A stretch of DNA of 32,000 nucleotides from Ruminococcus albus 7 = DSM 20455. Its GTDB lineage: Bacteria > Bacillota > Clostridia > Oscillospirales > Ruminococcaceae. Location of the stretch: assembly GCF_000179635.2 (NCBI RefSeq), contig NC_014833.1, positions 1,170,001-1,202,000 of the forward strand, given 5' to 3'. This document shows, piece after piece, positions 12,116 through 31,949 of the stretch; within the stretch, counting starts at the first letter, position 1; each line of letters starts with the position of its first letter. Under the pieces are notes generated by a model. The model ran no database searches and had not been told where the DNA came from. It worked only from the letters and a program-made list of their open reading frames with translations. Made by a program: the position numbers and the translations under genes.

Positions 12116-12256
12116 ATGAATATTGCAGATATAGTACTTGTGGTACTGATCGCTGCTGCTCTGGCAGGTGCGGTCTATCACTGTATCAGGAGCCGCGGAA
12201 AGTGCAGCTGCTCGTGCTGCTGCGGAGATTGTTCACAGTGCCGTGGTAAAATTTAG
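12116..12256 (+). CDS. FeoB-associated Cys-rich small membrane protein (not in ORF track, 46 aa)
   Basis: ATG lies 1 nt after the feoB stop. Translates to MNIADIVLVVLIAAALAGAVYHCIRSRGKCSCSCCCGDCSQCRGKI: one TM helix plus a Cys cluster, as in the FeoB-associated Cys-rich family. Confidence 0.7.
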   Translation: MNIADIVLVVLIAAALAGAVYHCIRSRGKCSCSCCCGDCSQCRGKI

Positions 12257-12404
12257 TAAAAGATAGAGGATGAGTTCATGCTTGTCCCCTTTTTTGTACA
12301 ATAACAAATGGTTAAGAAGACTTGGCGTTAACAGAAAGTCTAAAAATACGCATTTTTGATAACAATAGAGAAAGGTCATATATTTTAATTGTGAAGAATG
12401 GATA

Positions 12405-12433
12405 TTGACGTTAATGGTGGTAAGTGTTAAAAT
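12405..12433 (+). promoter_or_regulatory. sigma-A type promoter for the dlt-like operon
   Basis: TTGACG-17 nt-TAAAAT with a TGT extended -10 (TGTTAAAAT), 57 nt upstream of ATG 12490. Confidence 0.55.
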
Positions 12434-12489
12434 GATAGGGTGGATAATGATGCACATTTATTGACAGATAATTACAGGAGAGAACAAAA

Positions 12490-13995
12490 ATGGAGCTGAA
12501 TCTAATTCGACTGCTGGAACGTACAGCAGACAGATCACCTGACAAAACAGCGTACTCTGACAGCGTGGAGAGCCTTAGCTTTTCACAGGTCAGGGAACAG
12601 GCGGAACGCATAGGCAGTGCTATTGCTAAGAAGGTGCCTGCAAGGTGTCCCGTGGCGGTCATGTCAGGCAGACGTGTGCATACCCCCGTGATATTTCTGG
12701 GGATAGTATGCGCAGGGTGCTTTTATGCACCTATGGACAGCACTCAGCCTAAAGCGAGGCTGGCGGATATACTCTCAGTGCTACAGCCGAAGCTGCTGAT
12801 AGCAGATGAAGAGGGTATAGAGACTGCCCGTGAGCTTGGGTTTGAGGGCGAGATACTTAGCTATGAGGATCTGGCAGGGCAGGAGACCGACAGGGCTTTG
12901 CTCGATGAAAGGGCAAGGTATGCCTGCGCTGATGATCCGCTTTATGTGATATTCACCTCGGGTTCTACAGGTAAACCCAAGGGAGTTATCACTTCTATGA
13001 TGTCGCTGATGTGTTATATAAGCGCATATATAGAAGTCATGAAGATAGACGAGAACGATGTGCTGGGCAATCAGTCGCCGCTGGACTACATCGCTGCGGT
13101 AAGGGATATATATGTCCCCATATTTACAGGCGCTTCCATGTTCATAATACCTAAGCAGTGCTTTATGATGCCTGCAGAATTATTCAGGGTGATGAACGAG
13201 AGGAAGATAACATCTGTCGGCTGGAGCGTTTCAGTGTTCACGATTGCTGTGAAGCTTAAAGCTTTTGACGGTGAAAAGCCAGGATATCTGAAAAAAGTAT
13301 GTTTTTCAGGTTCGGTCATGCCCTGCAGTGCACTGAGGGTCTGGCAGGATAATCTGCCAGGATGCAGATTCGTAAATCAGTACGGACCTACCGAGTGTAC
13401 AGCATCGTGTACCTATCATGAGGTGGAAGGTCTTGTTGAAGAGGGTGACACTCTCCCTATCGGCAGACCCTACAGGAATTACAGAGTATTCCTGCTTGAC
13501 GATGACAACAAGCCTGTCAGCACAGGCGAACAGGGCGAGATATGCGTCAGCGGACCCATACTCGCGCTTGGCTATTACAACAACAAGGAACTTACAGACA
13601 AGTCGTTCATTCAGCATCCGCTGAACGGGGCTTACAATGAACTTATCTATAAAACAGGTGATTACGGAGTTTTTGATGAAAACGGTGTGCTCTGGTTCAA
13701 GGGGCGCAAGGACAGGCAGATAAAACACCTGGGTCACAGGGTTGAGCTTTCGGAGATAGAGAATGCCGCCCTCAGGCTGGAAAGCATAAGGGAATGCTGT
13801 GCTATGTACCTGAAGGAAAAGGAGCTCATATATCTTTTCTATACAGGTACTGCGACTGCGAAAGAAGCGGCTGTGCATTTCAGGGGAATACTCCCCGGAT
13901 TCATGGTGCCGCGCAAGCTTGTACAGCTTGAAGAAATGCCGCATTTGGCTAATGGCAAGACCGATATGCGTACGCTTACGGAAATGATGAAATAA
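12490..13995 (+). CDS. stand-alone amino-acid adenylation enzyme, DltA-like (carrier-protein ligase)
   Basis: 501 aa. Adenylation core motifs YVIFTSGSTGKPKGV, NQYGPTECT, YKTGDYG, GRKDRQIKHLGHRVELSEIE and ANGKTD. Length and architecture match DltA. SD AGGAGAG upstream. Confidence 0.9.
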   Translation: MELNLIRLLERTADRSPDKTAYSDSVESLSFSQVREQAERIGSAIAKKVPARCPVAVMSGRRVHTPVIFLGIVCAGCFYAPMDSTQPKARLADILSVLQPKLLIADEEGIETARELGFEGEILSYEDLAGQETDRALLDERARYACADDPLYVIFTSGSTGKPKGVITSMMSLMCYISAYIEVMKIDENDVLGNQSPLDYIAAVRDIYVPIFTGASMFIIPKQCFMMPAELFRVMNERKITSVGWSVSVFTIAVKLKAFDGEKPGYLKKVCFSGSVMPCSALRVWQDNLPGCRFVNQYGPTECTASCTYHEVEGLVEEGDTLPIGRPYRNYRVFLLDDDNKPVSTGEQGEICVSGPILALGYYNNKELTDKSFIQHPLNGAYNELIYKTGDYGVFDENGVLWFKGRKDRQIKHLGHRVELSEIENAALRLESIRECCAMYLKEKELIYLFYTGTATAKEAAVHFRGILPGFMVPRKLVQLEEMPHLANGKTDMRTLTEMMK

Positions 13996-14042
13996 AATGA
14001 GAATGATGAAATAATAAGGTTATGATACAGGAGGAACAAACA

Positions 14043-14276
14043 ATGAAAGAACAGCTTTTAGAATTACTTGAAGAAATAAGACCCGATGTGGATTTTGAAA
14101 ATGAGAAGCAGCTCATCACTGATGGTGTGCTGGATTCATTCGATATAGTATCCATGGTAACAGCCATGAACGATGAGTTCGATATCGAGATAGAGGTTGG
14201 CAATCTTGTGCCGGATAATTTCAACAGCATCGAGGGCATGATGGCTCTCATTGAAAAGCTGCAGGACGAGGATTGA
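14043..14276 (+). CDS. DltC-like aminoacyl/acyl carrier protein
   Basis: 77 aa counted from ATG 14043 (SD AGGAGG 8 nt upstream). Phosphopantetheine-serine motif GVLDSFDIV. Acidic helical protein. Confidence 0.85.
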   Translation: MKEQLLELLEEIRPDVDFENEKQLITDGVLDSFDIVSMVTAMNDEFDIEIEVGNLVPDNFNSIEGMMALIEKLQDED

Positions 14277-14285
14277 TACTGCGGC

Positions 14286-15464
14286 ATGGAGAAAGAGATA
14301 TTAAAAAATGCGGCTCTGACCTTAGGCACGCCCTGCTATATATTTGATACGGATGTATTCGCAAAGCGTGCAGCGGCAGTAAAAAATGCCTTTGGTGACA
14401 GGGTCGGGCTTTGCTATTCCATAAAGGCGAACCCTTTTCTGCTGGCAGCACTGCCGGAGGAGTTTTCGTATATCGAAGTATGCTCTCCGGGAGAACTCAG
14501 TATATGCGAGAATGTGGGTGCGCCACTTGATAAGATAATATTTTCGGGTGTGAACAAGACCGGGGAAGATATCGCACGCGCATATGCTGACGGCGTTGCC
14601 ATATTTACAGCCGAAAGCAGACTGCACGCAGAGCTTATTAACGAGTGTGCGGTAAAGAACGGCGGCAGGGTGAAGCTGATACTCAGACTTGCCCACGGAA
14701 GCCAGTTCGGTATGGATAAGTCCGATCTGTTGGACATTATCGACCGCAGGGAGCAGTTTGCAGGCGTTGAGATAATAGGTCTGCACTACTTTACAGGCAC
14801 GCAGAAAACTAAGGTCAAGACCATAGAAAAGGAGCTCGCACTTCTGGATGAGCTTTGTGCAGAGCTTGAAAACGAGCATGGCTATAAGCCCTCACATATC
14901 GAGTACGGCACGGGGCTGGCGGTGGAGTATTATAAGGACTTTACCGAAAGCACCGATATTGCGTTGCTTGAAGAAGCATCTGCGGTTATCCGTCCATTTG
15001 CGGAAAAGTACCCACTTACTGTTGAGATGGGAAGATTCTTTGCGGCTGAATGTGGAAGCTATCTGACCAAAATAATGGACATAAAGACCACAAATGATTT
15101 AAAATACGTGATATGCGACGGCGGTATAAACCATGTGAATTACTACGGTCAGAACATGGCTATGAAAGTTCCGCCTATAGAAGTAATTGAAAAAACAGGG
15201 GAGGAGAAGGACTACTGCCTGTGCGGAAGTCTTTGTACCACCGCTGATATACTTGTGCGCAAGGCAACTCTCCCGACTCTTGAAAGAGGGGATATCATCG
15301 CATTTTCAAAGTGCGGTGCTTATTCCGTTGCGGAGGGCATAGCGGCATTCCTTTCGAGAGATATGCCCGCAGTAGCTCTTTTCAGCGAAAAAGACGGACT
15401 TGTTTCTCAGCGAGGTCATGTGGCAACACACCCTCTTAATACCCCATCGGAGGTAAGACCTTGA
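14286..15464 (+). CDS. PLP-dependent decarboxylase, Orn/DAP/Arg decarboxylase (fold-type III) family
   Basis: 392 aa. Motifs colinear with LysA/ODC: TPCYIFD, PLP-lysine CYSIKANPF, GLHYFTGTQ, YGTGLAV, EMGRFF, CGSLCTTAD and CGAYS. Confidence 0.85.
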   Translation: MEKEILKNAALTLGTPCYIFDTDVFAKRAAAVKNAFGDRVGLCYSIKANPFLLAALPEEFSYIEVCSPGELSICENVGAPLDKIIFSGVNKTGEDIARAYADGVAIFTAESRLHAELINECAVKNGGRVKLILRLAHGSQFGMDKSDLLDIIDRREQFAGVEIIGLHYFTGTQKTKVKTIEKELALLDELCAELENEHGYKPSHIEYGTGLAVEYYKDFTESTDIALLEEASAVIRPFAEKYPLTVEMGRFFAAECGSYLTKIMDIKTTNDLKYVICDGGINHVNYYGQNMAMKVPPIEVIEKTGEEKDYCLCGSLCTTADILVRKATLPTLERGDIIAFSKCGAYSVAEGIAAFLSRDMPAVALFSEKDGLVSQRGHVATHPLNTPSEVRP

Positions 15465-17062
15465 GCTACACTTCGATAAATTACCTGCTGTATGTGGCAG
15501 TCTGTCTGCTGCTGTACGGCATCATACCCAAGACCAAAAGATGGTGGGTACTTCTGGCGGCAAGCATGGGATTCTACGGGATAATATGCAGGGAACACCC
15601 GTCACTGGTACTGTTTATACTTATGACCGCCGCGACTACCTACGGCGGAGGACTCTGGCTGGAAAAATACATCGAGCAGAAAGATGCTTATGTAAAGTCA
15701 CAGAAAGGCAAGTGGAGCAAGGAAGAAAAGAGCGCCTACAAGGACAAGGTGACAGCAGGCAAAAAGCGGATCTGCGCTTCGGTGCTGGTGCTGAACTTCG
15801 GTGTGCTGGCGTTCTTGAAATATTTCAACTTCTTTGCGGATACTATAAATTCCGTGACAGGGCGCGGAAGTGTCCCTAGGCTGGGACTGCTTCTTCCGAT
15901 AGGTATATCATTCTATACTTTCCAGTCCATGGGATATATCATCGACATCTACCGCAAGAAATATAAGGCGGAACGGAATTATCTGAAATTTCTGCTGTTC
16001 GTGTCCTTCTTCCCGCAGATAGTGCAGGGCCCCATAGCTTTTTACAGTGACCTGGCACATCAGCTTTACGCAGGTGAGGATGTCAGATTTGAAAACATAA
16101 AGCAGGGCGTTCTGCTGATAACATGGGGCTTTTTCAAAAAGCTTGTTATCGCTGACCGACTTGTTACTGCAGTGATGACTGTACCCAATGACTGCGACAG
16201 TTATTCGGGAACAGCGGTACTGCTGACGGCGCTGATGTATGCTTTGCAGCTGTATGCCGATTTCTCGGGCGGTATAGATATCTCCCGCGGCGTGGCACAG
16301 CTTTTCGGCATAAATATGGCTGAAAACTTCAAAAGACCATATTTCTCAAAGGATATTTCGGAGTACTGGCACCGCTGGCACATCACTCTCGGCGCATGGC
16401 TTAGGGAGTATCTGTTCTATCCCGTGGCAATGTCAAAGCCTTTCCAGAAAATGGGCAAGGCGCTGAAAGCCAAGTTCGGCATGAAGATATCGAAGGTGCT
16501 GCCTGTCAGCATAGCTTCGCTGATAACCTTCCTTGTGGTGGGTATATGGCACGGCGCAAACTGGAAGTATGTTGCCTTCGGTGCATGGAACGGCGGTATC
16601 ATAATGATATCCACACTTCTGGAGAGCAATTTTGAGAGCTGGAAGAAGAAGCTTCATATAGAGAATACAAACAAGCTGTTCATAGTATTCCAGCTTTTCA
16701 GGACATTCCTGATAGTTCTGGTGGGCTACTATTTTGATATAGCGCCTGATTTTTCAACAGCGATGCACATGATGTATATGTCGGTGACAGACCTGCATCC
16801 CTCTGAACTGTTCAGCAGGGAGTTCCTTGGTTCGCTGTCACTGTGCAGAGCCGATGTTGTCGCAGTGCTTGCTGCGATGGTAATAATGTTGATCGTATCG
16901 CTGAAGCAGGAGCATTCAGAGGTAACTCTGAGAGAAAGGATATGCAAAAGGAGCTTTGTATTCCAGTCGCTGGTATTCCTGCTGCTGCTGTATGCAGTGA
17001 TAATTTTCGGCGTTTACGGACCGGGTTCAAACCCCGCGGATTTTTATTATATGCAGTTCTGA
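15461..17062 (+). CDS. MBOAT family O-acyltransferase (AlgI/DltB-type)
   Basis: 533 aa, polytopic. MBOAT histidine motif EYWHRWHITLGAWLREYLFYP plus GIWHGANWKY. TTG start with SD GGAGGT 6 nt upstream. The start overlaps the decarboxylase stop (TTGA). Confidence 0.9.
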   Translation: MSYTSINYLLYVAVCLLLYGIIPKTKRWWVLLAASMGFYGIICREHPSLVLFILMTAATTYGGGLWLEKYIEQKDAYVKSQKGKWSKEEKSAYKDKVTAGKKRICASVLVLNFGVLAFLKYFNFFADTINSVTGRGSVPRLGLLLPIGISFYTFQSMGYIIDIYRKKYKAERNYLKFLLFVSFFPQIVQGPIAFYSDLAHQLYAGEDVRFENIKQGVLLITWGFFKKLVIADRLVTAVMTVPNDCDSYSGTAVLLTALMYALQLYADFSGGIDISRGVAQLFGINMAENFKRPYFSKDISEYWHRWHITLGAWLREYLFYPVAMSKPFQKMGKALKAKFGMKISKVLPVSIASLITFLVVGIWHGANWKYVAFGAWNGGIIMISTLLESNFESWKKKLHIENTNKLFIVFQLFRTFLIVLVGYYFDIAPDFSTAMHMMYMSVTDLHPSELFSREFLGSLSLCRADVVAVLAAMVIMLIVSLKQEHSEVTLRERICKRSFVFQSLVFLLLLYAVIIFGVYGPGSNPADFYYMQF

Positions 17063-17074
17063 TAAGGAGAGCAA

Positions 17075-18229
17075 ATGAAAAGCAAAATGAAAAAACGTAT
17101 GCTGAAGCTGACCGGCCTTGGCGTGGTGACAGTGCTTCTGTTTGTGCTTACATCCTATGTTTTGCAGTACACGGCTATCAGCTCGGAAACACATATACGC
17201 AATTTTTACCGCGAACCGAAAGATTCGCTGGATGTTGCTGTTATAGGATGCAGTGAGGCTTATGCTGATTTCTCACCGCCCATAGCCTATGATAAGTATG
17301 GCTTTACCAGCTACAATCTGGCTTTTGAGGGAGCACCGGGTCATTTCTACAGCTCGATGCTGGATACTTTCGTATCAAGGCAGAAGCCCCAGCTGGTGGT
17401 GTTCGAGGTAAACGGATTCTTATATAATGACGATCACTCTTACAAAGAGGGAGTAGTCCGCAAGTGGATAGATAATATGAAGAAGGACAAACTCTGGTAC
17501 GATCTTGTAAAGCAGGAGATACCCGAGGATGAACGGATCAACTACTACTTAGGTATACTTAAATACCACGACAACTGGAAACACCCGTTTTTGCTGGCAG
17601 GCAGACAGTACCAGCTGTGGGAGAATTATAAGGATGACGTATCCCTTATGAAAAGCTTCGGTACAAGAACAACTACAGATTCCAAAAAGAAGAAAACTCC
17701 CAAAAGAGTCCACAAATTATGTGATTACGGTATAAAGAATCTGACAGCGACGATCGATCATTGCCACGAACTTGGGATCGAAAATGTGCTGTTCATACGT
17801 ACACCTCATAAGGATAAGCTGACTCCCGAAGTTGATGAAGAACTCAGAAAGCTTATCACTGATGCAGGCTATGATTATGAGAATTTTGAAAACGATGAGA
17901 ATATCGGCATAGACGAAAATACCGACTTCTATAACGGCGATCACCTGAATGTTTTCGGCAATGAGAAGAATACCATATACCTCGGAAAGTACATAGTAGA
18001 TCACTATGATATCAAAACTTCTCACTCCGAAAAGGTAGATAAGAAGTGGCGTGAATGTGCTGAGTATACATATAAAACATTCGATGTTCTCAAAAAGAAA
18101 ACTCTTGAGGATGAGGATGATCAGTATAACGAGTTCTCAAATCTCAGCGATCACACACTTAAACTGAAGAAGAAGTTCGCGAAGTATAAGAATAAACACA
18201 CAGAAGGAGAATCCTCCGTAAAAGAGTGA
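17075..18229 (+). CDS. DltD-like / SGNH-like extracytoplasmic acyltransferase partner, N-terminally membrane anchored
   Basis: 384 aa. SD AAGGAG upstream. Single N-terminal TM helix ([19 protein letters not shown]). IGCSEAY resembles the DltD GSSE serine block, and [10 protein letters not shown] resembles an SGNH block V. It sits directly after the MBOAT gene, as dltD or algJ/X would. Confidence 0.7.
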
Positions 18230-20011: not shown

Positions 20012-20046
20012 ATATGAGTTGTTATGAGAGATATCTCAAAGCAAAT

Positions 20047-20119
20047 GAGCCATTAGCTCAGTTGGCAGAGCATTTGACTTTTAATCAAAGGGTCTGGAGT
20101 TCGAATCTCCAATGGCTCA
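20047..20119 (+). tRNA. tRNA-Lys (anticodon UUU)
   Basis: A 73-nt cloverleaf was folded by hand. Acceptor GAGCCAT/ATGGCTC, D-stem GCTC/GAGC, anticodon stem TTTGA/TCAAA with loop CTTTTAA, and T-arm TGGAG-TTCGAAT-CTCCA. No CCA is encoded. Confidence 0.92.
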
Positions 20120-20159
20120 TTTATCGCCTTCGGTACACATCGGAGGCGGTATTTTATAT

Positions 20160-20241
20160 GCGGGTGTGGTGAAATTGGCAGACACGTTAGATTTAGGTTC
20201 TAATGCCGAATGGTGTGCAGGTTCAAGTCCTGTCACCCGCA
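20160..20241 (+). tRNA. tRNA-Leu (anticodon UAG)
   Basis: 82 nt. Acceptor GCGGGTG/CACCCGC, anticodon stem TTAGA/TCTAA with loop TTTAGGT, a long variable arm, and a GGTTCAAGTCC T-loop. Confidence 0.9.
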
Positions 20242-20251
20242 CTTCATTGAT

Positions 20252-20438: not shown

Positions 20439-20519
20439 ATGAAAAACAAGGAGATTGGTTATAATACGCACGTATGTGAAGGCATACGAATTATGATCAT
20501 GAGAGGAGTTTTTTTATGA
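20439..20519 (+). CDS. candidate 26-codon upstream ORF / leader peptide (MKNKEIGYNTHVCEGIRIMIMRGVFL)
   Basis: AAGGAG lies 6 nt upstream of ATG 20439. Its stop TGA overlaps the main ATG 20516 (ATGA). It lies entirely within the predicted 5' leader. No homology evidence. Confidence 0.3.
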   Translation: MKNKEIGYNTHVCEGIRIMIMRGVFL

Positions 20520-23302
20520 AAAGAAGAGCTTTTGGCCGCTGTACTGCGGCAGGCGTTGCTGCTCTGATCGGTGTTGCTGCACTTGGGCAGTCGATGCTGA
20601 CAGCCAGTGCGGCTTCGGGTGTCGTTATCAACGAAGTCTGCACCAAGAACACAACTGTACCCGCATCAGACGGTCAGTTCTATGACTTTGTAGAGCTGTA
20701 CAATCCCACGGGAAGCGCTATATCCATAGCAGGCTATGGACTGTCTGACGATGCAGCTTCACCTATGCAGTATACACTGCCGCGAAATGCTTCCATACCC
20801 GCATACGGTTATTATACCATTTACTGTGGAGTTGACAGCAGCAGCGGTGTGCAGGGCGCGTCCTTCGGCCTTTCCAAGAACGGTGAGAAGATAATACTTT
20901 CAAATGCGAACGGGAATGCAGTTGAAACCGTTGAAGTACCAGCGCTCAGTGATAATACTTCCTATGGCAGAACACCCGACGGCAGCCAGAACTTTGGTAT
21001 CTTTTCTTCGCTGACACCGGGTTATGCAAACCAGAATAACCAGAACGTTCAGGCAGATGTGAGTGAGCCGCAGTTCTCAAAAGAGAGCGGTTTCTACTCC
21101 AACAGTTTTGACCTGACGATATCTGCGCCCTCGGGCTGCACTGTATACTATACCCTTGACGGCAGTGACCCGACAACTGCATCAGAGCGTGCTAACGGCA
21201 GCATAAACATATATGACAGGTCATCGGAGCAGAATGTATATTCTGCAAGAACAGATGTTGCTGACGGATATACTCCGCCCAGCTCGCCTGTTGACAAGGC
21301 TACCATAGTACGTGCAATTGCTGTTGACCGTAACGGCAATGTGAGCGATATCGTAACAAAGACTTATTTTATAGGCTATACCCAGAACGACTGCGAGATG
21401 AATATGCGTGTCATATCCCTCGTCACCGACCCCGACAACCTTTTCGACTATGAAAAAGGCATATACGTAAAGGGCAAGATATACGATCAGTCTACGGGAA
21501 ATATGATGCAGTCCTGGAGCCATCCCGCAAACTATACACAGGACGGCAAGGAATGGGAGCGTCCCGCAAATATCACAGTGTTTGAAAAGGGAAAAGCCAC
21601 ATACAACGCAAACGTAGGCATACGTATACACGGTGCGGCTACACGTGCCGATGTACAGAAGAGCTTCAACCTTTATGCAAGGAGCGAATACGGTACAAAG
21701 AAGCTGAAATATGATTTCTTCAACGGACAGCTGACCAACCACAAGGGTGAAGTTATAGATTCCTTTGAGAAGATAACACTGCGTAACGGCGGCAACGATT
21801 ACAAGACCAAGCTTCGTGACCGTCTGAACCATGAGATGGTAAGCGACCGTCATTTCGGTTCACAGGCACAGACAGAATGTGTTGTGTTCCTGGACGGTGA
21901 ATTCTGGGGTACATACAATATCACAGAAAAGATAGGCAAGGAATACATTTCCGACCACTACAAGGTCAAGGAAGACGATGTATGCATGATAAAGACCGAT
22001 GAGCTCGCTGACGGCACTCAGCAGGGACTTTCGGATTATGAACAGCTGAAGCGCCTTGTATCTTCAAACAATTTCAAGGACAGCAGTGCATACGCCAGAC
22101 TTGAAGAGCTGATGGATATGAGGAGCTTTGCCGAATATATGGCAACAGAGCTGATAGTAGGCAACTCCGACTTTGGCGATAACAACTATGCGCTGTGGAA
22201 GACCGAGACAGTTGACGCTGATAAGAAGTACGGCGACGGCAAGTGGCGTTTCATACTCTTTGATACCGAATACGGTCAGGGTCTTTACGGACAGAGCAAC
22301 GCAAATACCAACGCTATACAGGCTCTGCGAAACAAGAACAAGTGGATAACACAGCTGTTCTTCGGACTGTGTGAGAATCAGGATTTCCGTGACCTTTTCC
22401 TGAGAGCTTATTTTGATCTGTGCAACGAGAACTTTGATACCGACAAGGTGCTCTCGCGCCTGAATGAGCTGGAAAATGCATACAAGGCTTCCATGAGCAA
22501 GAGCTACGCACGTTTCAACTGGTCAAGCGGCACAGGCGGCTGGGGCGGCGGAATTTGGGGCGGCGGCTGGCAGTTCCCCGGACAGGGCGGACAGCCCGGT
22601 CAGCAGAACCCCGGAGATGGTCAGCAGGCAAACGGCAACGACAAGTTCTCGACGGAGGTTTCTTCTATTCGCAGTTTCTGGTCGAACCGTATATCTGCCT
22701 GCGAACAGCAGGTGATGCAGTACTTCGGCATAAGCGGCACAGTAAACGTCACCGTGAAGAACAACTCTTCACAGGGACACGTAAACTTCAATACCCTGAA
22801 GGTTTATGACAGCAGCTGGAGCGGTGTATATCCCGCAGACTGCAAGCTGACCCTTGAAGCTAAGCCCGAGGACGGATATCATCTTGAAAAGTGGGTAGTC
22901 AGCGGTGCGCAGTTCGTTTCGGGCAGTGCGACATCTGAGGAAGCAGTTATCAAGCCCACAGGTCAGAACGTGACAGTTCAGGCTGTGTATGCGGCAGGCA
23001 GCGGTTCATCACAGCCCTCAGCAAAGGACTATCCTACGAACATCAAGGTGAATTACAATACCCAGTATCATCAGATACAGTTCGTATGGGACAAGGTACA
23101 GGGTGCTGACAAGTACGGCATAGCTGTATACCTGGCAGGAAAGTGGAGAGTGCAGACTTCAAGCATAACCACAAACAGCTTTGTTACACCCAAGAACCTC
23201 ACCCCGGGCATGAGCTACAAGGTAGCAGTTGCGGCAAGAGTTAACGGTCAGTGGAACACCACAGACCCCATCAAGAATGCTGTTACAGTTACTGTAAAGT
23301 GA
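20516..23302 (+). CDS. secreted multidomain LTD / CotH kinase-family protein with C-terminal Fn3-like module
   Basis: 928 aa, read in order:
- Signal peptide.
- Lamin-tail domain (VVINEV...FVELYNPTGSAISIAGYGLSDD).
- Chitobiase-C/Fn3-assoc-like segment (GFYSNSFDLTISAPSGCTVYYTLDGSDPT).
- CotH core (FNLYARSEYG...LRNGGNDY...).
- G/W/Q-rich linker.
- InlB-B-repeat-like segment (...EDGYHLEKWVVSG).
- Fn3-like terminal 90 aa. Confidence 0.88.
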   Translation: MKRRAFGRCTAAGVAALIGVAALGQSMLTASAASGVVINEVCTKNTTVPASDGQFYDFVELYNPTGSAISIAGYGLSDDAASPMQYTLPRNASIPAYGYYTIYCGVDSSSGVQGASFGLSKNGEKIILSNANGNAVETVEVPALSDNTSYGRTPDGSQNFGIFSSLTPGYANQNNQNVQADVSEPQFSKESGFYSNSFDLTISAPSGCTVYYTLDGSDPTTASERANGSINIYDRSSEQNVYSARTDVADGYTPPSSPVDKATIVRAIAVDRNGNVSDIVTKTYFIGYTQNDCEMNMRVISLVTDPDNLFDYEKGIYVKGKIYDQSTGNMMQSWSHPANYTQDGKEWERPANITVFEKGKATYNANVGIRIHGAATRADVQKSFNLYARSEYGTKKLKYDFFNGQLTNHKGEVIDSFEKITLRNGGNDYKTKLRDRLNHEMVSDRHFGSQAQTECVVFLDGEFWGTYNITEKIGKEYISDHYKVKEDDVCMIKTDELADGTQQGLSDYEQLKRLVSSNNFKDSSAYARLEELMDMRSFAEYMATELIVGNSDFGDNNYALWKTETVDADKKYGDGKWRFILFDTEYGQGLYGQSNANTNAIQALRNKNKWITQLFFGLCENQDFRDLFLRAYFDLCNENFDTDKVLSRLNELENAYKASMSKSYARFNWSSGTGGWGGGIWGGGWQFPGQGGQPGQQNPGDGQQANGNDKFSTEVSSIRSFWSNRISACEQQVMQYFGISGTVNVTVKNNSSQGHVNFNTLKVYDSSWSGVYPADCKLTLEAKPEDGYHLEKWVVSGAQFVSGSATSEEAVIKPTGQNVTVQAVYAAGSGSSQPSAKDYPTNIKVNYNTQYHQIQFVWDKVQGADKYGIAVYLAGKWRVQTSSITTNSFVTPKNLTPGMSYKVAVAARVNGQWNTTDPIKNAVTVTVK
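23030..23302 (+). repeat. copy 1 of a 273-bp direct repeat encoding a C-terminal Fn3-like module
   Basis: Aligns without gaps to 31677..31949. I counted 78 of 90 encoded residues identical. The longest identical nucleotide run I can read is about 45 nt (atgggacaaggtacagggtgctgacaagtacggcatagctgtata). Confidence 0.9.
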
Positions 23303-24298: not shown

Positions 24299-26533
24299 TC
24301 AATCAAGTTTCCAGCTGTCAACTGAAGCATTGTTGTTGAATACGAAATAGAGATCGTTCTTGCCGCTCAGACCCTGAACAGGAACTGTGATCTCCTGCAT
24401 TGACGAACCTGCGGGTATCTCAACATAGGATACGACTGTTCCGTTTGCACTGCCTGTGCAAACCTTAACGATACAGCCTGTGTTGGAAGAAGCCTTGAAT
24501 GTCATGGTTTCTGCGCCGCTTCCGCAATCAACTCCGGATACACGGTACCAGCTGCCCTTCTTAGCCTGTACGGTAGAATAATCGCCGCTGCCGCTTATGG
24601 TTATGCCGCCCTGATGCGAGAATGTAGCTGCACGCTGGGTACGGAAGGGATCAAACGATTTGATCTGGCTGACACCCTTCTTGGTGCCTGTGATAGCCTG
24701 GATAGTACCATTGGAATTGATCGTTACCTTATCAATATGAGTGCTGCGGTAGCCGCCCTTCAGACCCATGTTGTCCTGTAAGTACTGTGCATGGTAGAAC
24801 AGATACCACTGATTGTTGAACTTGAATATGGTGTGGTGGTTGTTGCCGCCTGTGCCGAAGAATGTGCCTATACCCTTGAATGCCTCACCAACGTATGTGA
24901 AGGGTCCGAGAGGATAGTCGCTGACCATGTACTGGATAGCACCGCCTGACAGTCCATACTGGTTTCCGCCGGTGCTGAAATTCGAGCAGTAGCTGTAATA
25001 GTACTTGCCGTTGAACTTGTGTATGCCGCTGTCCTCAAAGAGATAAGGCGGGTCAATAGTCTGGGGAGTACCTACGATAGAGGTCATATCACTGCCGAGT
25101 TTTACACATCTTGCAGTCTTGGGGTGAGCATTCTGTCCGCTGGGAACACCGCCGCCGAAATACAGATATCCTGTGCCGTCGTCATCTACGAGTACTGCAG
25201 GGTCGAACAGCCATTCAACGTTGCCGCAGTTCGGGGTCGAACGAGAGATAAGTGCCTTGCCGATAGGATCTTTCCAGGGACCTGTGGGGCTGTCGGCTTC
25301 AAGAACTGCTATGCCGTTACCGCCGTTTGCGAAGTACAGGAAGAATTTCTCTTTGCCGTTGATCTTCTTGTGGCAGGCAGTAGGTGCCCAGGAGTTTCCG
25401 CCCCACCTGCACAGACCGTTAGATCCGGCTGCATTTATCAGACCGTGGTCTGTCCAGTTAACAAGGTCGTCGGAGGATATGCAGCGGATGCAGTTGATAG
25501 TACCGTATTCGATATCCTTGAGCTGACCGTTGCTGTAAAGCAGATGGTCGTCTGTCATAAATACATATACTCTGCCGTTATACTCCATTACACCGGGGTC
25601 TGCACCGAAGTACTGAGATATCAGGGGGTTGTTCTCGTTGGACTTCTTATAGCCGGTAGCGAGGCTGACATTGCCGAATTTGCCTGCCATTTCGTTGAAA
25701 TCTATCTTATTTATCTTGGGGAAGCTGTTTATTTTCTTGAGGATAAAATCCTGTAAGTAATTGATATCATCATTATCGACAGTACCGCTCTTGTCGATAT
25801 CTGCAGCCTTCTGAGACTGCTTGTTCGGGAATCCCGAATACATACCGCGCTTAGCAAGTATCAGGTCTGCCAGGTTGATCCTGCCGTCCTGATTCACATC
25901 GCCGCGGATATCGCCTGGGGTCTTGGGTGCGGTGTAGCCCTGTGAAGCCCCTGAGCTGTCGATCGTTACACCGTCAGCGGCAACTATGGCTTCATCGATG
26001 TAGAAATTGCCGTAAACGTCGGTAGTTTCAACATAAAGGTAAACATCGCTGGCATCCGATGGTATCTGGAAGCTGGGGTTTGAAAGCTGGAGATACTGTC
26101 CGCGGGAGGTGGAGCCTTCTGCAAGGTGCAGGTACTTTACTGTGCCCGTAGAATCGGTGTACTGCATGGAAAGCAGGAAATTCTGGGTGCTCTCGCCTTC
26201 CTCATAGTCAACGAATACATTGAAGCTGTAGCTTTTTCCGGGAATGAATGTAGAAGTATCAAGCGCCATCTGAGCGCCCTGCCATGCACTGGTACGGTCC
26301 TTGATAAGGAGCGCGTTGGTACCCTTGAAAGGATGTCTGCCGCTGAGAAGTATCTCACCTGAACCCCTTATCTCCCAGTTGCCGCTGCTGTCCTCAAAAG
26401 TATCATGGTAATAGAACCCGTTTGAATCGGGTGACATTGCCGCTGACACAGGTAACGCAGAAGTTGTCGAAAGCAATACTGCGCTGCTCAGAGTTGCTGT
26501 ACAAAGTCGGGTAATCGTTTTCTTCAGTTTCAT
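24299..26533 (-). CDS. cellulosomal GH43 glycoside hydrolase (arabinofuranosidase/xylosidase type): CBM22-like - dockerin - GH43 - CBM6
   Basis: 744 aa with a signal peptide. N-terminal CBM_4_9/CBM22-like domain. Type I dockerin duplicate (DVNQDGRINLADLILAKR ... DIDKSGTVDNDDINYLQDFI). GH43 catalytic motifs GADPGVMEYNGRVYVF, LFDPAVLVDDDG and LFEDSGIHKFNGKYYY. C-terminal CBM6-like domain. SD AGGAGG upstream. Confidence 0.9.
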   Translation of the reverse strand: MKLKKTITRLCTATLSSAVLLSTTSALPVSAAMSPDSNGFYYHDTFEDSSGNWEIRGSGEILLSGRHPFKGTNALLIKDRTSAWQGAQMALDTSTFIPGKSYSFNVFVDYEEGESTQNFLLSMQYTDSTGTVKYLHLAEGSTSRGQYLQLSNPSFQIPSDASDVYLYVETTDVYGNFYIDEAIVAADGVTIDSSGASQGYTAPKTPGDIRGDVNQDGRINLADLILAKRGMYSGFPNKQSQKAADIDKSGTVDNDDINYLQDFILKKINSFPKINKIDFNEMAGKFGNVSLATGYKKSNENNPLISQYFGADPGVMEYNGRVYVFMTDDHLLYSNGQLKDIEYGTINCIRCISSDDLVNWTDHGLINAAGSNGLCRWGGNSWAPTACHKKINGKEKFFLYFANGGNGIAVLEADSPTGPWKDPIGKALISRSTPNCGNVEWLFDPAVLVDDDGTGYLYFGGGVPSGQNAHPKTARCVKLGSDMTSIVGTPQTIDPPYLFEDSGIHKFNGKYYYSYCSNFSTGGNQYGLSGGAIQYMVSDYPLGPFTYVGEAFKGIGTFFGTGGNNHHTIFKFNNQWYLFYHAQYLQDNMGLKGGYRSTHIDKVTINSNGTIQAITGTKKGVSQIKSFDPFRTQRAATFSHQGGITISGSGDYSTVQAKKGSWYRVSGVDCGSGAETMTFKASSNTGCIVKVCTGSANGTVVSYVEIPAGSSMQEITVPVQGLSGKNDLYFVFNNNASVDSWKLD

Positions 26534-29488: not shown

Positions 29489-29561
29489 AGCTGGTGACGG
29501 GACTCGAACCTGCGACCTGCTCATTACGAATGAGCTGCACTACCAGCTGTGCTACACCAGC
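29489..29561 (-). tRNA. tRNA-Thr (anticodon CGU)
   Basis: The reverse complement folds as a 73-nt cloverleaf. Acceptor GCTGGTG/CACCAGC, D-arm GCAC-AGCTGGTA-GTGC, anticodon stem GCTCA/TGAGC with loop TTCGTAA, and T-loop TTCGAGT. The T-stem GCAGG/CCCGT carries one A:C mismatch and one G-U. Confidence 0.85.
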
Positions 29562-29903: not shown

Positions 29904-31949
29904 ATGAAAAGTATTATCAGAAGAATGGCTGCCATTGCATCGGTAGCTGCACTGTCTGTGACAGGTGCGGTACCGGCGTTGTCGGCAGTCACAACAACAC
30001 CTGCAGTAGCTGCAACAACAGATGACTGCAACGACGACTGGCTGCAGGCAAAGGGCAGCAGACTTTACGACAAAAACGGCAACGAGGTATGGCTGACCGG
30101 TGCAAACTGGTTCGGTTTCAACTGCAGCGAGGCTTGCCCTCACTACCTCTGGAGTGCTGACGCTGATGACTGTCTGAAAGAGATAGCAGACCGCGGCATC
30201 AACATTATCCGTTTCCCTGTTTCTTCCGAGCTTCTCGTTTCATGGATGAAGGGCAAGCCAATGCCCGTAAGCAGCTTCTCCTGCAACACAGACCCTGCTT
30301 ACACCATCAATGCTGACTTCTGCGAAGCAGACGGAAAAACAGCAAAGAACAGTATGGAAGTATTCGATATCATGATGCAGAAATGCAAGAAGTACGGTAT
30401 CAAGGCTTTCATCGATGTTCACAGCCCACATACTGACAATTCAGGTCATAACTACAACCTCTGGTATGGCAAGGCAGGCGTAACTACTGATGTATGGATA
30501 GAGTCACTGGTATGGCTTGCTGACAAGTATAAGAATGATGACACACTTCTCGCTTATGACCTCAAGAACGAGCCTCACGGCAAGGGTCAGGAAGGCGATG
30601 AAGCAGCTAAGTGGGACGGTTCCAAGGATGAGAACAACTGGGCTTATGCTGCGACAAGATGCGCAGACGCTATACTTGACGTTAACCCCAATGCACTCAT
30701 ACTCGTTGAAGGTGTTGAGCAGTCGATGAGCGGCGCTCAGGCAGGCGACTACTGGGGTATGCCCGACAGAAGAGACAACTCACCTTACATTGGCGCATGG
30801 TGGGGCGGTAACTTCCGCGGCGCAAGAAAGTATCCTATCAAGCCCGAGCATGGTACATCTCAGATAGTTTACTCGCCTCATGACTACGGCCCTTCTGTTT
30901 ATGCACAGACATGGTTCAATAAGGATTTTACAGAGGAAACTCTTCTGAAAGATTACTGGTATGATACATGGGCATATATCAATGCTGAAGAGATAGGTCC
31001 TGAGCTTATCGGTGAGTGGGGCGGTCATATGGACGGCAAGGAGAACCAGAAGTGGATGACTCTTCTTCGTGACTACATGATCAAGCACCACATCAGCCAT
31101 ACATTCTGGTGCCTCAATACGAACTCCGGCGATACAGGCGGACTCTGGGATGGTCTTGGATTCATGGCAGGCAGCGGTACATCTATCAAGTGGAACGAGC
31201 CTAAGTATGAGCTCTTCGAGAAGGCTCTCTGGCAGACAGCTACTTCCGGCAAGTACATCGGTCTTGACCATCAGGTAGCACTGGGTAAGAACGGTATCTC
31301 CCTGAATGAGTTCTATTCAAAGTATTCATCTACTGAGGGCAGCAACCTTGACGGCGGAAAGAAATCTCCTGGTAATGTTAACAATGATACACCTGTTGTT
31401 CAGAGCATCAAGGTTTCGTACACTGCTGTTGAAGGTGGTGCAAACCTCAGCTGGAACAAGATAAGCAACGCTGATAAGTATGCTGTATACCAGAACGTTA
31501 ACGGTTCCTGGAAGCAGGTTGCCGAAACAACAGGCACTTCCTATAACTGGACAGGTCTGACCTATGGTACTAACTACAAGGTAGCTGTCGTTGCAAGAGT
31601 CAATAATGCATGGACTAATGATTATTCCAATGCTATCACTGTAACTCCCAAGCAGACAACTTCCAACACTGATGATTATCCTAAGAACGTTAAGGCTAAT
31701 TACAACACTCAGTATCATCAGGTACAGTTCACATGGGACAAGGTACAGGGTGCTGACAAGTACGGCATAGCTGTATATCTGGCAGGCAAGTGGAGAGTTC
31801 AGACTTCCAACATCACAACCAACAGCTTTGTAACACCCAAGAACCTCACCCCCGGCATGACCTACAAGGTAGCCGTTGCGGCAAGAGTAGGTGGAAAGTG
31901 GAACACAGCCGATCCTATCAAGAACGCTATAACTGTTACTATTAAGTAA
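29904..31949 (+). CDS. secreted GH5 endoglucanase (cellulase) with two C-terminal Fn3-like modules, no dockerin
   Basis: 681 aa. SD GAGAGGGG upstream. Signal peptide. GH5 acid/base motif LAYDLKNEPHG and nucleophile motif LIGEWGG. Two tandem ~90-aa Fn3-like modules follow, and the last one is the repeat copy. Confidence 0.92.
   Translation: MKSIIRRMAAIASVAALSVTGAVPALSAVTTTPAVAATTDDCNDDWLQAKGSRLYDKNGNEVWLTGANWFGFNCSEACPHYLWSADADDCLKEIADRGINIIRFPVSSELLVSWMKGKPMPVSSFSCNTDPAYTINADFCEADGKTAKNSMEVFDIMMQKCKKYGIKAFIDVHSPHTDNSGHNYNLWYGKAGVTTDVWIESLVWLADKYKNDDTLLAYDLKNEPHGKGQEGDEAAKWDGSKDENNWAYAATRCADAILDVNPNALILVEGVEQSMSGAQAGDYWGMPDRRDNSPYIGAWWGGNFRGARKYPIKPEHGTSQIVYSPHDYGPSVYAQTWFNKDFTEETLLKDYWYDTWAYINAEEIGPELIGEWGGHMDGKENQKWMTLLRDYMIKHHISHTFWCLNTNSGDTGGLWDGLGFMAGSGTSIKWNEPKYELFEKALWQTATSGKYIGLDHQVALGKNGISLNEFYSKYSSTEGSNLDGGKKSPGNVNNDTPVVQSIKVSYTAVEGGANLSWNKISNADKYAVYQNVNGSWKQVAETTGTSYNWTGLTYGTNYKVAVVARVNNAWTNDYSNAITVTPKQTTSNTDDYPKNVKANYNTQYHQVQFTWDKVQGADKYGIAVYLAGKWRVQTSNITTNSFVTPKNLTPGMTYKVAVAARVGGKWNTADPIKNAITVTIK
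31677..31949 (+). repeat. copy 2 of the 273-bp direct repeat encoding the C-terminal Fn3-like module
   Basis: See 23030..23302. Same strand and same position (last 90 codons plus stop) in an unrelated protein. Confidence 0.9.

Follow-up and report, generated by a model that had tools for sequence, protein, structure and literature searches.

A conserved five-gene cluster of Ruminococcus albus 7 links a putatively carrier-dependent decarboxylase module to an MBOAT/SGNH pair and may encode an omega-amino-acyl modification of the cell envelope

A 32,000-nucleotide stretch of the Ruminococcus albus 7 chromosome (contig NC_014833.1, positions 1,170,001 to 1,202,000 of the forward strand; hereafter the window, numbered from its first letter) carries a cluster of genes for an adenylating ligase, a small carrier protein, a pyridoxal 5'-phosphate (PLP)-dependent decarboxylase, a membrane-bound O-acyltransferase (MBOAT), together with a membrane-anchored protein of SGNH/DltD fold, situated between the feoAB genes and leuB. 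An earlier note on this DNA, made from the letters alone, had read here five co-directional, closely packed genes running from the ligase to a DltD-like protein, and the five + strand open reading frames (ORFs) in Table 1 bear this out, coordinates included. The encoded proteins are identical to ADU21563-ADU21567 of R. albus in the public record. Their public annotation is generic and partly wrong: the carrier is listed as an 'acyl carrier protein', the PLP protein is named 'alanine racemase' or 'diaminopimelate decarboxylase', and the label 'hypothetical protein' is also used.

The five genes are separated by 47, 9, -4 and 12 nt, and the carrier, MBOAT and SGNH genes each have a Shine-Dalgarno sequence in front of them. 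The carrier starts at the ATG at 14043, with an AGGAGG ribosome-binding site at 14029-14034, 8 nt upstream, and the TTG start of the MBOAT gene overlaps the decarboxylase stop codon (TTGA) and has a GGAGG upstream. This placement of ribosome-binding sites confirms both a 77-aa carrier with an LDSFD motif and the overlapping TTG start, as the earlier note had them. A candidate promoter, identified as a consensus match only, lies 57 nt 5' of the ligase ATG, and an Rfam search of the leader gave no Rfam element, riboswitch or leader RNA upstream of the operon. Translational coupling and the ribosome-binding sites count for one operon-type unit.

Table 1. Positions of the cluster genes, associated sequence elements and neighbouring features in the window.
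Feature	Position	Strand	Length or basis
Promoter-like site: TTGACG, 17 nt, TAAAAT with TG extension	12405-12433	+	sigma-70 consensus scan, 10/12
Adenylating ligase	12490-13995	+	501-aa ORF
Carrier protein	14043-14276	+	77-aa ORF
PLP decarboxylase	14286-15464	+	392-aa ORF
MBOAT	15461-17062	+	533-aa ORF
FYYMQF hexapeptide, MBOAT C-terminus	17042-17059	+	read from sequence
Membrane-anchored SGNH/DltD-fold fifth protein	17075-18229	+	384-aa ORF
Terminator-like hairpin	12268-12287		closes feo genes
Small ORF directly 3' of feoB	12116-12256	+	46 aa
tRNA-Lys(ttt), tRNA-Leu(tag)	20046-20242	+	
CotH-kinase protein with lamin-tail domain	20516-23302	+	928 aa
Glycoside hydrolase family 43 (GH43) enzyme with dockerin and carbohydrate-binding modules	24299-26533	-	
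tRNA-Thr(cgt)	29489-29561	-	
Glycoside hydrolase family 5 (GH5) cellulase with Fn3 domain	29904-31949	+	

Gene content, conservation and synteny of the cluster were read directly from other genomes. A scan of one genome per species, with the decarboxylase-family alignment as query, found relatives in at least 433 genomes, and the best 80 of these 433 (decarboxylase 49-91% identity) were used for the synteny counts, in which the denominators are loci with room for the gene in question. All of the 80 are Clostridia except for a few contigs whose bins look misassigned. The counts were 70/70 for the ligase, 80/80 for the carrier, 66/68 for the MBOAT and 65/68 for the SGNH protein; the gene order of the window was identical in 59 of the 80 loci, and nine more had the same order plus an extra MBOAT/SGNH pair upstream. 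The feo and leuB flanks are limited to R. albus and its close relatives, other genomes providing other contexts, and no flanking gene family was common to more than 11 of about 75 loci, so that the five genes behave as a self-contained unit.

The family extends well beyond these loci. A library search with the decarboxylase family profile returned at least 150 clusters at 50% identity above 300 bits, and the cluster was found on many human-gut and rumen metagenome contigs. A metagenome scan seeded with the most divergent decarboxylases (about 30-40% identity) recovered the same gene content in shuffled orders, namely MBOAT-ligase-decarboxylase-carrier, MBOAT-fifth protein-ligase-carrier-decarboxylase and ligase-decarboxylase-carrier. 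Linkage that persists through such rearrangement is strong evidence of functional coupling, and the arrangement recurs far beyond chance. The claim that the decarboxylase belongs with the other four genes thus survives the synteny comparison, the gene being linked to them in at least 80 species and across rearrangements. In the fetched loci no canonical lysA was found, only the decarboxylase family itself matching. No fusion to a carrier or MBOAT was seen in the long decarboxylase-family representatives (P0232, P0335 and others). In P0232 (1046 aa) Ig-like surface repeats and a transglutaminase-like core are attached to a decarboxylase domain, probably through a gene-call read-through and not as a real fusion.

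The ligase matched the AMP-binding model at 220 bits and the amino-acid adenylation model TIGR01733 at 318 bits, and fell below the cut-offs of the DltA models (TIGR01734, 267 vs 560 bits; NF003417, 277 vs 476 bits). Ten specificity positions were extracted against PheA (1amu) and B. subtilis DltA (3e7w), with the reference sequences verified. The code reads IARGCSQASK in the window ligase (I201, A202, R205, G, C, S, Q, A, S and K490, with Asp199 at PheA position 233), DLMTMCTVAK in DltA and DAWTIAAICK in PheA. It differs from that of DltA at 8 of the 10 positions, the universal Lys517 being one of the two matches. Among 75 orthologues, 72 carry IAR[GC]CSQASK, two have Ile/Val at position 299 and one has a gap at 517. 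Asp235, which hydrogen-bonds the alpha-amino group of the usual adenylation-domain (A-domain) substrates (PMC8788816), is replaced by Ile, and the Cys of DltA at position 301 is also lost. Judged by these residues, the pocket is not a D-alanine pocket.

Position 239, deep in the pocket, is an invariant Arg (Arg205) in this ligase subtype. A second subtype, about 40% identical, occurs at loci L095, L098, L101, L104, L126, L130, L163 and others in the order ligase-decarboxylase-carrier, with the MBOAT upstream or downstream; its code, DVK[TIV][LM]SLCNK, keeps Asp235 and has Lys239. It may mark another substrate or another binding mode of the same substrate. Position 233 is Asp in both subtypes and Ser in PheA and DltA. 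The loss of the alpha-amino anchor together with the Arg239/Asp233 pair points to activation of a side-chain carboxyl: such an acid-base pair deep in the pocket would fit the head of an acidic amino acid held distally while its side-chain carboxyl is adenylated. Other A domains that activate a side-chain carboxyl, those of ACVS module 1 (EPRNIVEFVK), McyE (DPRHSGVVGK) and McyB2 (DARHVGIFVK), also have Arg239; a literature search gave no confirmation of these codes, and they are not used as evidence.

The carrier has its phosphopantetheine serine, Ser32, in the LDSFD motif, and the serine motif is kept in 81 orthologues. Its PP-binding match is weak, and the DltC models gave 37.7 vs 68 bits (NF003464) and 22.6 vs 52 bits (TIGR01688). 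The PLP protein matched the Pfam domains Orn_Arg_deC_N (PF02784) and Orn_DAP_Arg_deC (PF00278), and its catalytic set (the PLP lysine K47, H167, E247, R250, C317 and Y346) is invariant in the family. Pfam gave no alanine racemase domain match in the window protein, next to the decarboxylase-family domains that do match; a weak precomputed Ala_racemase_N match exists in many family members, well under the scores of the decarboxylase-family domains. By sequence affinity the enzyme is a fold-type III decarboxylase of the BtrK/SbnH/LysA clade.

An identity as LysA was considered and rejected: the protein scored 175 bits on the lysA model TIGR01048, short of the cut-off of 297.9, and in an alignment with Aquifex LysA it has CTT in place of the CET motif and Y..Q in place of R..Y. 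The CE(S/T) and R..Y residues of LysA are contacts to the distal end of diaminopimelate (DAP), and the replacements (Y286, Q289 and T318) are family-invariant. When the family profile was compared with the PDB, BtrK came first (173 bits, E 6e-50) and 6knh second (152.6 bits), ahead of the best LysA (151.7 bits); 6knh was deposited as a 'Probable diaminopimelate decarboxylase protein' and is presumably SbnH. The enzyme looks like a carrier-dependent decarboxylase and unlike LysA, and the BtrK precedent to which the earlier note pointed is the best match among solved structures. The other precedent offered there, MccE, gives way to closer ones in VinN/L/O, FlvN/L/O and CtaD/E/F. Membership of the exosortase-A-associated pair TIGR03098/TIGR03099 was also rejected; TIGR03099 is the nominal best NCBIfam match of the decarboxylase at 178.5 bits vs a cut-off of 478.45, and the ligase reached 178.1 vs 592.35 on TIGR03098.

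The MBOAT matched PF03062 at 66.8 bits (cut-off 27) and the DltB model at 161 vs 375 bits. His307 and His364 are each kept in at least 95% of 72 orthologues, and His364 aligns with His336 of DltB. The alignment with DltB (6bug) spans residues 143-421 of 533 only, and a C-terminal extension of about 110 aa, absent from DltB, ends in FYYMQF. All 72 full-length MBOAT orthologues have an FxYxxF-type C-terminus, which is F[VYI]YMQF in 66 and FVYAQF, FMYAQF, FVYGGF or FLYFKF in the rest, and the MBOATs of the metagenome variants end in the same way. No free-standing DltX-like ORF and no other ORF ending in FXYXXF occurs anywhere in the window, which extends the earlier note's failure to find a small dltX-like ORF upstream; the absence of dltX is accounted for by an FXYXXF shuttle motif fused to the MBOAT's own C-terminal end. 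In DltX the tyrosine of this motif accepts D-alanine, and in PatA it accepts acetyl, which in either case then goes to an SGNH partner; the pathways whose MBOAT has the motif fused to it 'lack a carrier protein' and use acyl-CoA (PMC12148441). With both a carrier-protein donor and a fused shuttle motif, the cluster represents a third MBOAT configuration, undescribed in PMC12148441.

The fifth protein has an N-terminal transmembrane helix (residues 2-29). It has no sequence-level match in Pfam, NCBIfam or a PDB profile search, and Pfam gave none in 33 homologues. An AlphaFold2 model built from homologues (predicted local distance difference test score 91.3) had as its best Foldseek matches DltD structures 6pfx (E 1.8e-5) and 3bma (Enterococcus faecium and Streptococcus pneumoniae DltD), followed by SGNH esterases. 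Ser60 (in GCSE), His290, Asp284 and Asn292 are invariant. The model suggests an SGNH-fold, DltD-like predicted transferase. Profile searches accounted for the ligase, the carrier (weakly), the decarboxylase and the MBOAT, and the DltD-like protein was placed by fold.

Taken with the motifs, folds and family affinities, which are direct results, the synteny leads us to think it rather probable that the five genes form one self-contained pathway adding an omega-amino-acyl group to an extracytoplasmic envelope polymer. Our inferences as to the substrate, the sequence of reactions, the way in which the group travels and the kind of acceptor are as follows. The ligase would adenylate an acidic L-amino acid, most likely Asp and then Glu, at its side-chain carboxyl and thioesterify it onto the phosphopantetheine of the carrier, Arg205 (239) and Asp199 (233) holding the free alpha-carboxylate and alpha-ammonium. 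The PLP enzyme would strip the free alpha-carboxyl from the tethered amino acid to leave beta-alanyl-S-carrier or, from Glu, 4-aminobutyryl-S-carrier. The MBOAT may then, on the cytoplasmic side, receive the carrier's acyl group and pass it via His364 to the tyrosine of its own FYYMQF motif at the outer face, from which the SGNH protein would accept it on Ser60 and deliver it to a polymer hydroxyl. Such a pathway would add a cationic group in ester linkage, comparable to D-alanylation in kind and chemically distinct from it.

The earlier note had proposed a dicarboxylic amino acid of Glu, Asp or DAP type, decarboxylated on the carrier or just before loading. The pocket, the BtrK-nearest profile and the lost DAP contacts favour the Asp/Glu part of this proposal, and the DAP-to-lysyl route is disfavoured. 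For the product, we put a beta-alanyl group at somewhat under an even chance and a 4-aminobutyryl (GABA) group clearly lower, with the remainder going to other groups. Beta-alanyl is favoured because ring closure is easy for a GABA thioester or ester and the cluster encodes no enzyme that would protect it, and also because the second ligase subtype keeps Asp235; the equivalent Asp of VinN likewise anchors a beta-positioned amino group. Protecting groups are employed in the butirosin and macrolactam pathways. Glu stays a candidate in view of the affinity to BtrK and of where Arg239 lies.

Several variants of the cluster bear on how its parts are combined. At nine loci (L032, L043, L063, L065, L069, L075, L078, L082 and L086) the second MBOAT/SGNH pair lies 5' of the ligase-carrier-decarboxylase-MBOAT-SGNH set, upstream of the ligase at about 0-6 kb in locus coordinates, and an OmpR-type response regulator and a histidine kinase stand directly 5' of this second pair. 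The second-copy MBOAT is about 37% identical and ends in P[IM]YA[ND]F. The upstream two-component system is reminiscent of two-component dlt control, and the second pair suggests one donor module serving two acceptors. Two or three tandem SGNH/DltD-like paralogues, 30-36% identical to the window protein, follow a single MBOAT at L067 (10787-14161) and L079 (10787-13021).

Two other arrangements are free of an MBOAT. L102 (4369-14301) has, in order, a hexapeptide acyltransferase, a ligase with the IAR code, a carrier, a decarboxylase, a 754-aa YfhO-family membrane protein, a 360-aa unknown protein, another ligase whose code (DLMVLCTVAK) resembles that of DltA, another carrier and an AAC(3)-like N-acetyltransferase; the YfhO family acts in teichoic-acid glycosylation. 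At L089 (3096-12572), and similarly at L090, L105, L111 and L123, an 85-aa carrier comes after a distant decarboxylase (about 35% identity); around them lie three radical S-adenosylmethionine (radical-SAM) genes, genes for an SbnA-like PLP enzyme and for a NadE-like protein, and a ligase gene whose product has TIGR03098 as its best NCBIfam match. This branch is probably a small-molecule pathway that reuses the ligase, carrier and decarboxylase trio. The variants together suggest a portable omega-amino-acyl-carrier module coupled to differing downstream machinery.

Several points weigh against an envelope pathway of the kind proposed. The roles of the five proteins are predicted from genes, folds and comparison, and the substrate is read from a 10-residue code that has no exact precedent. 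Position 235 is Ile in one ligase subtype and Asp in the other, which may make a shared substrate doubtful, and the cyclisation of GABA leaves the Glu option uncomfortable. The carrier scores below the curated PP-binding and DltC cut-offs. The likeness of the SGNH protein to DltD is at the level of the fold, with a TM-score of 0.34-0.38 and no sequence-level match, and no hint of the acceptor in the flanking genes is consistent across loci.

Other readings of the same genes have to be set beside it. Decarboxylation might come before loading, so that a free omega-amino acid (beta-alanine, GABA or, from DAP, lysine) is made and then loaded by the ligase for export. Gene content alone leaves the order of the steps unfixed, and the conserved Asp199 (233) could bind a terminal ammonium. 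Such an omega-amino acid has no second carboxylate, however, yet position 239 is basic in both ligase types (Arg in type 1, Lys in type 2). All characterised carrier-adjacent homologues act on a tethered substrate, CtaF refusing the free one and VinO needing a prior thioester; the profile is nearest to BtrK and SbnH, which handle large conjugates, and not to free-amino-acid enzymes, and the LysA-type DAP contacts are absent. We consider this order unlikely. We see slightly less prospect that the product is a secreted or membrane small molecule, such as a thiotemplated natural product or an amino-acylated lipid, in place of a wall-polymer decoration. The characterised ligase/carrier/decarboxylase trios all belong to secondary metabolism, and the L089 relatives combine a carrier and a TIGR03098-like ligase with radical-SAM and SbnA-like genes in an MBOAT-free setting. 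Clusters of the window type, however, are without condensation, ATP-grasp, transacylase or tailoring genes, and all that they have besides is an MBOAT with an FXYXXF end and a membrane-anchored SGNH protein, a kind of pair that acylates envelope polymers (PMC12148441). The second MBOAT/SGNH pairs and extra SGNH paralogues suggest several acceptors and not the building of a single molecule, and one variant (L102) pairs the trio with a YfhO-family protein.

The PLP enzyme could instead be a racemase or epimerase of the same fold, the exported group being a D-amino-acyl group in a variant of Dlt D-aminoacylation. Fold-type III does include alanine racemase, Ala_racemase_N is weakly matched in many members, and canonical Dlt relies on a D-amino acid made by a racemase. 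The decarboxylase-specific C-terminal sheet domain, Cys317 and His167 are all present, though, the nearest characterised relatives are all decarboxylases, and the ligase is without the Asp that would be expected to bind the alpha-amino group if a D- or L-alpha-amino acid were activated at C1; this reading is improbable. More improbable still, and largely refuted, is an ordinary dlt operon in which a housekeeping lysA or alanine racemase lies by chance. DltA, DltC and DltB are the best-named NCBIfam matches for three of the proteins, the fifth is closest to DltD in fold, and the public labels on the PLP protein agree with such a reading. Yet every Dlt model scores far under its cut-off, the ligase code is unlike that of DltA with Asp235 and Cys301 lost, and the cluster has a fused shuttle motif in place of dltX. 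The PLP gene is moreover syntenic in every genome examined, also after rearrangement, misses the lysA cut-off with its DAP contacts gone, and has no alanine racemase domain match.

D-alanylation is the textbook Gram-positive route for adjusting surface charge, cationic-peptide resistance and host interaction. Carrying the envelope pathway favoured above over to other genomes, we tentatively propose, at rather less than an even chance, that many gut and rumen Clostridia of Ruminococcus, Acutalibacteraceae, Oscillospiraceae and Lachnospiraceae attach beta-alanine or GABA, made on a carrier from Asp or Glu, through an ester bond to a surface glycopolymer, teichoic-acid-like or other, that in some species the system stands beside a two-component system, and that duplicated MBOAT/SGNH pairs may serve several acceptors. 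If the pathway holds, MBOAT/SGNH export would be fed by a separate, self-contained donor module that makes a non-proteinogenic amino-acyl group, and a chemistry so far met in antibiotic biosynthesis alone (Btr, Cta, Vin and Flv) would be tied to cell-envelope biology. The result would be an unrecognised cationic envelope modification whose ester stability is unlike that of D-alanylation and which needs no racemase. Full-text literature searching, of incomplete coverage, turned up no account of a dlt-like or MBOAT cluster that includes a decarboxylase. The unit is common, as the at least 433 species-representative genomes with the decarboxylase family attest, and R. albus 7 is a cultivable strain that carries it, so that the system is directly testable with five proteins.

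The CotH, GH43 and GH5 neighbourhood in the window is the usual chromosomal setting of a fibre-degrading R. albus and not a mobile element. The earlier note had taken feo and leuB as core flanks in a chromosomal context; the fibre-degradation genes agree with that context, and the flanks themselves hold only for R. albus and close relatives. The 46-aa ORF directly 3' of feoB has one transmembrane helix and a Cys-rich tail (CIRSRGKCSCSCCCGDCSQCRGKI) and looks like a FeoB-associated small membrane protein; as a candidate DltX it was ruled out, being without an FXYXXF end. Downstream, leuB and a 169-aa membrane ORF are followed by tRNA-Lys and tRNA-Leu genes, with tRNA-Thr further on, and ORFs listed across the tRNA positions are spurious. 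Two 406-aa ORFs at the start of the window were considered as insertion-sequence copies and rejected; they are an aminotransferase and a phosphoglycerate kinase, without repeats.

Among known systems, Dlt shares with the pathway proposed for the R. albus cluster a stand-alone adenylating ligase and a small carrier, an MBOAT that passes the acyl group to an FXYXXF tyrosine, and delivery by a membrane-anchored protein of SGNH/DltD fold. The R. albus cluster differs in its linked PLP decarboxylase, its order of A-C-decarboxylase-B-D, its MBOAT-fused motif and its pocket, which is not one for D-alanine. PatA/PatB, which O-acetylates peptidoglycan, resembles it in another respect, as do other MBOAT-SGNH polymer acyltransferases: PatA is an MBOAT with two extra C-terminal helices ending in FXYXXF, whose tyrosine is acylated, and a separate SGNH protein finishes the transfer. 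In that pair the acyl group comes from acyl-CoA and there is no carrier, whereas the R. albus cluster supplies a ligase, carrier and decarboxylase. The acyl-relay mechanism of DltB/DltX/DltD and of PatA/PatB is established (PMC12148441). The ligase and decarboxylase are also matched as a linked pair in TIGR03098/TIGR03099, an AMP-ligase and an Orn/DAP-family decarboxylase of unknown function, but the scores lie far under those cut-offs, the window ligase scores higher on the DltA models, and none of the loci examined showed an exosortase context.

The donor half of the cluster has its counterparts in antibiotic biosynthesis. VinN/VinL/VinO (vicenistatin) and FlvN/FlvL/FlvO (fluvirucin) each consist, as here, of an A-domain ligase, a stand-alone acyl carrier protein and a PLP decarboxylase. 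In each of the four documented trios (Vin, Flv, Cta and Btr) the side-chain carboxyl forms the tether and decarboxylation follows on the carrier. In VinN/L/O, 3-methyl-Asp is loaded by its side-chain carboxyl and decarboxylated only after thioester formation (PMC11284099). FlvN/L/O and CtaD/E/F both convert Asp to beta-alanine, and CtaF is inactive on the free substrate (PMC11350588, PMC7183216). The Vin and Flv systems differ in being actinobacterial and in feeding a polyketide synthase via further ligase and acyltransferase steps, whereas the R. albus acyl-carrier would meet an MBOAT/SGNH export pair, with no protecting-group ligase encoded; the 60 best PDB matches of the window ligase do not include VinN. 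BtrJ/I/K, of the butirosin pathway, forms GABA from Glu on the BtrI carrier, BtrK being a Glu-S-carrier decarboxylase (PMC7857480). BtrK and CtaF thus share with the R. albus enzyme the fold-type III PLP decarboxylase type, acting on Glu-S-carrier and Asp-S-carrier, respectively, but BtrI/J/K and CtaD/E/F have an ATP-grasp loader and antibiotic products and are without an MBOAT or SGNH partner. Closthioamide, the product of the Cta pathway, comes from a cellulolytic Clostridium. The R. albus unit is best described as a combination of MBOAT-SGNH export of the Dlt/Pat type with on-carrier decarboxylation of the Btr/Cta/Vin type.

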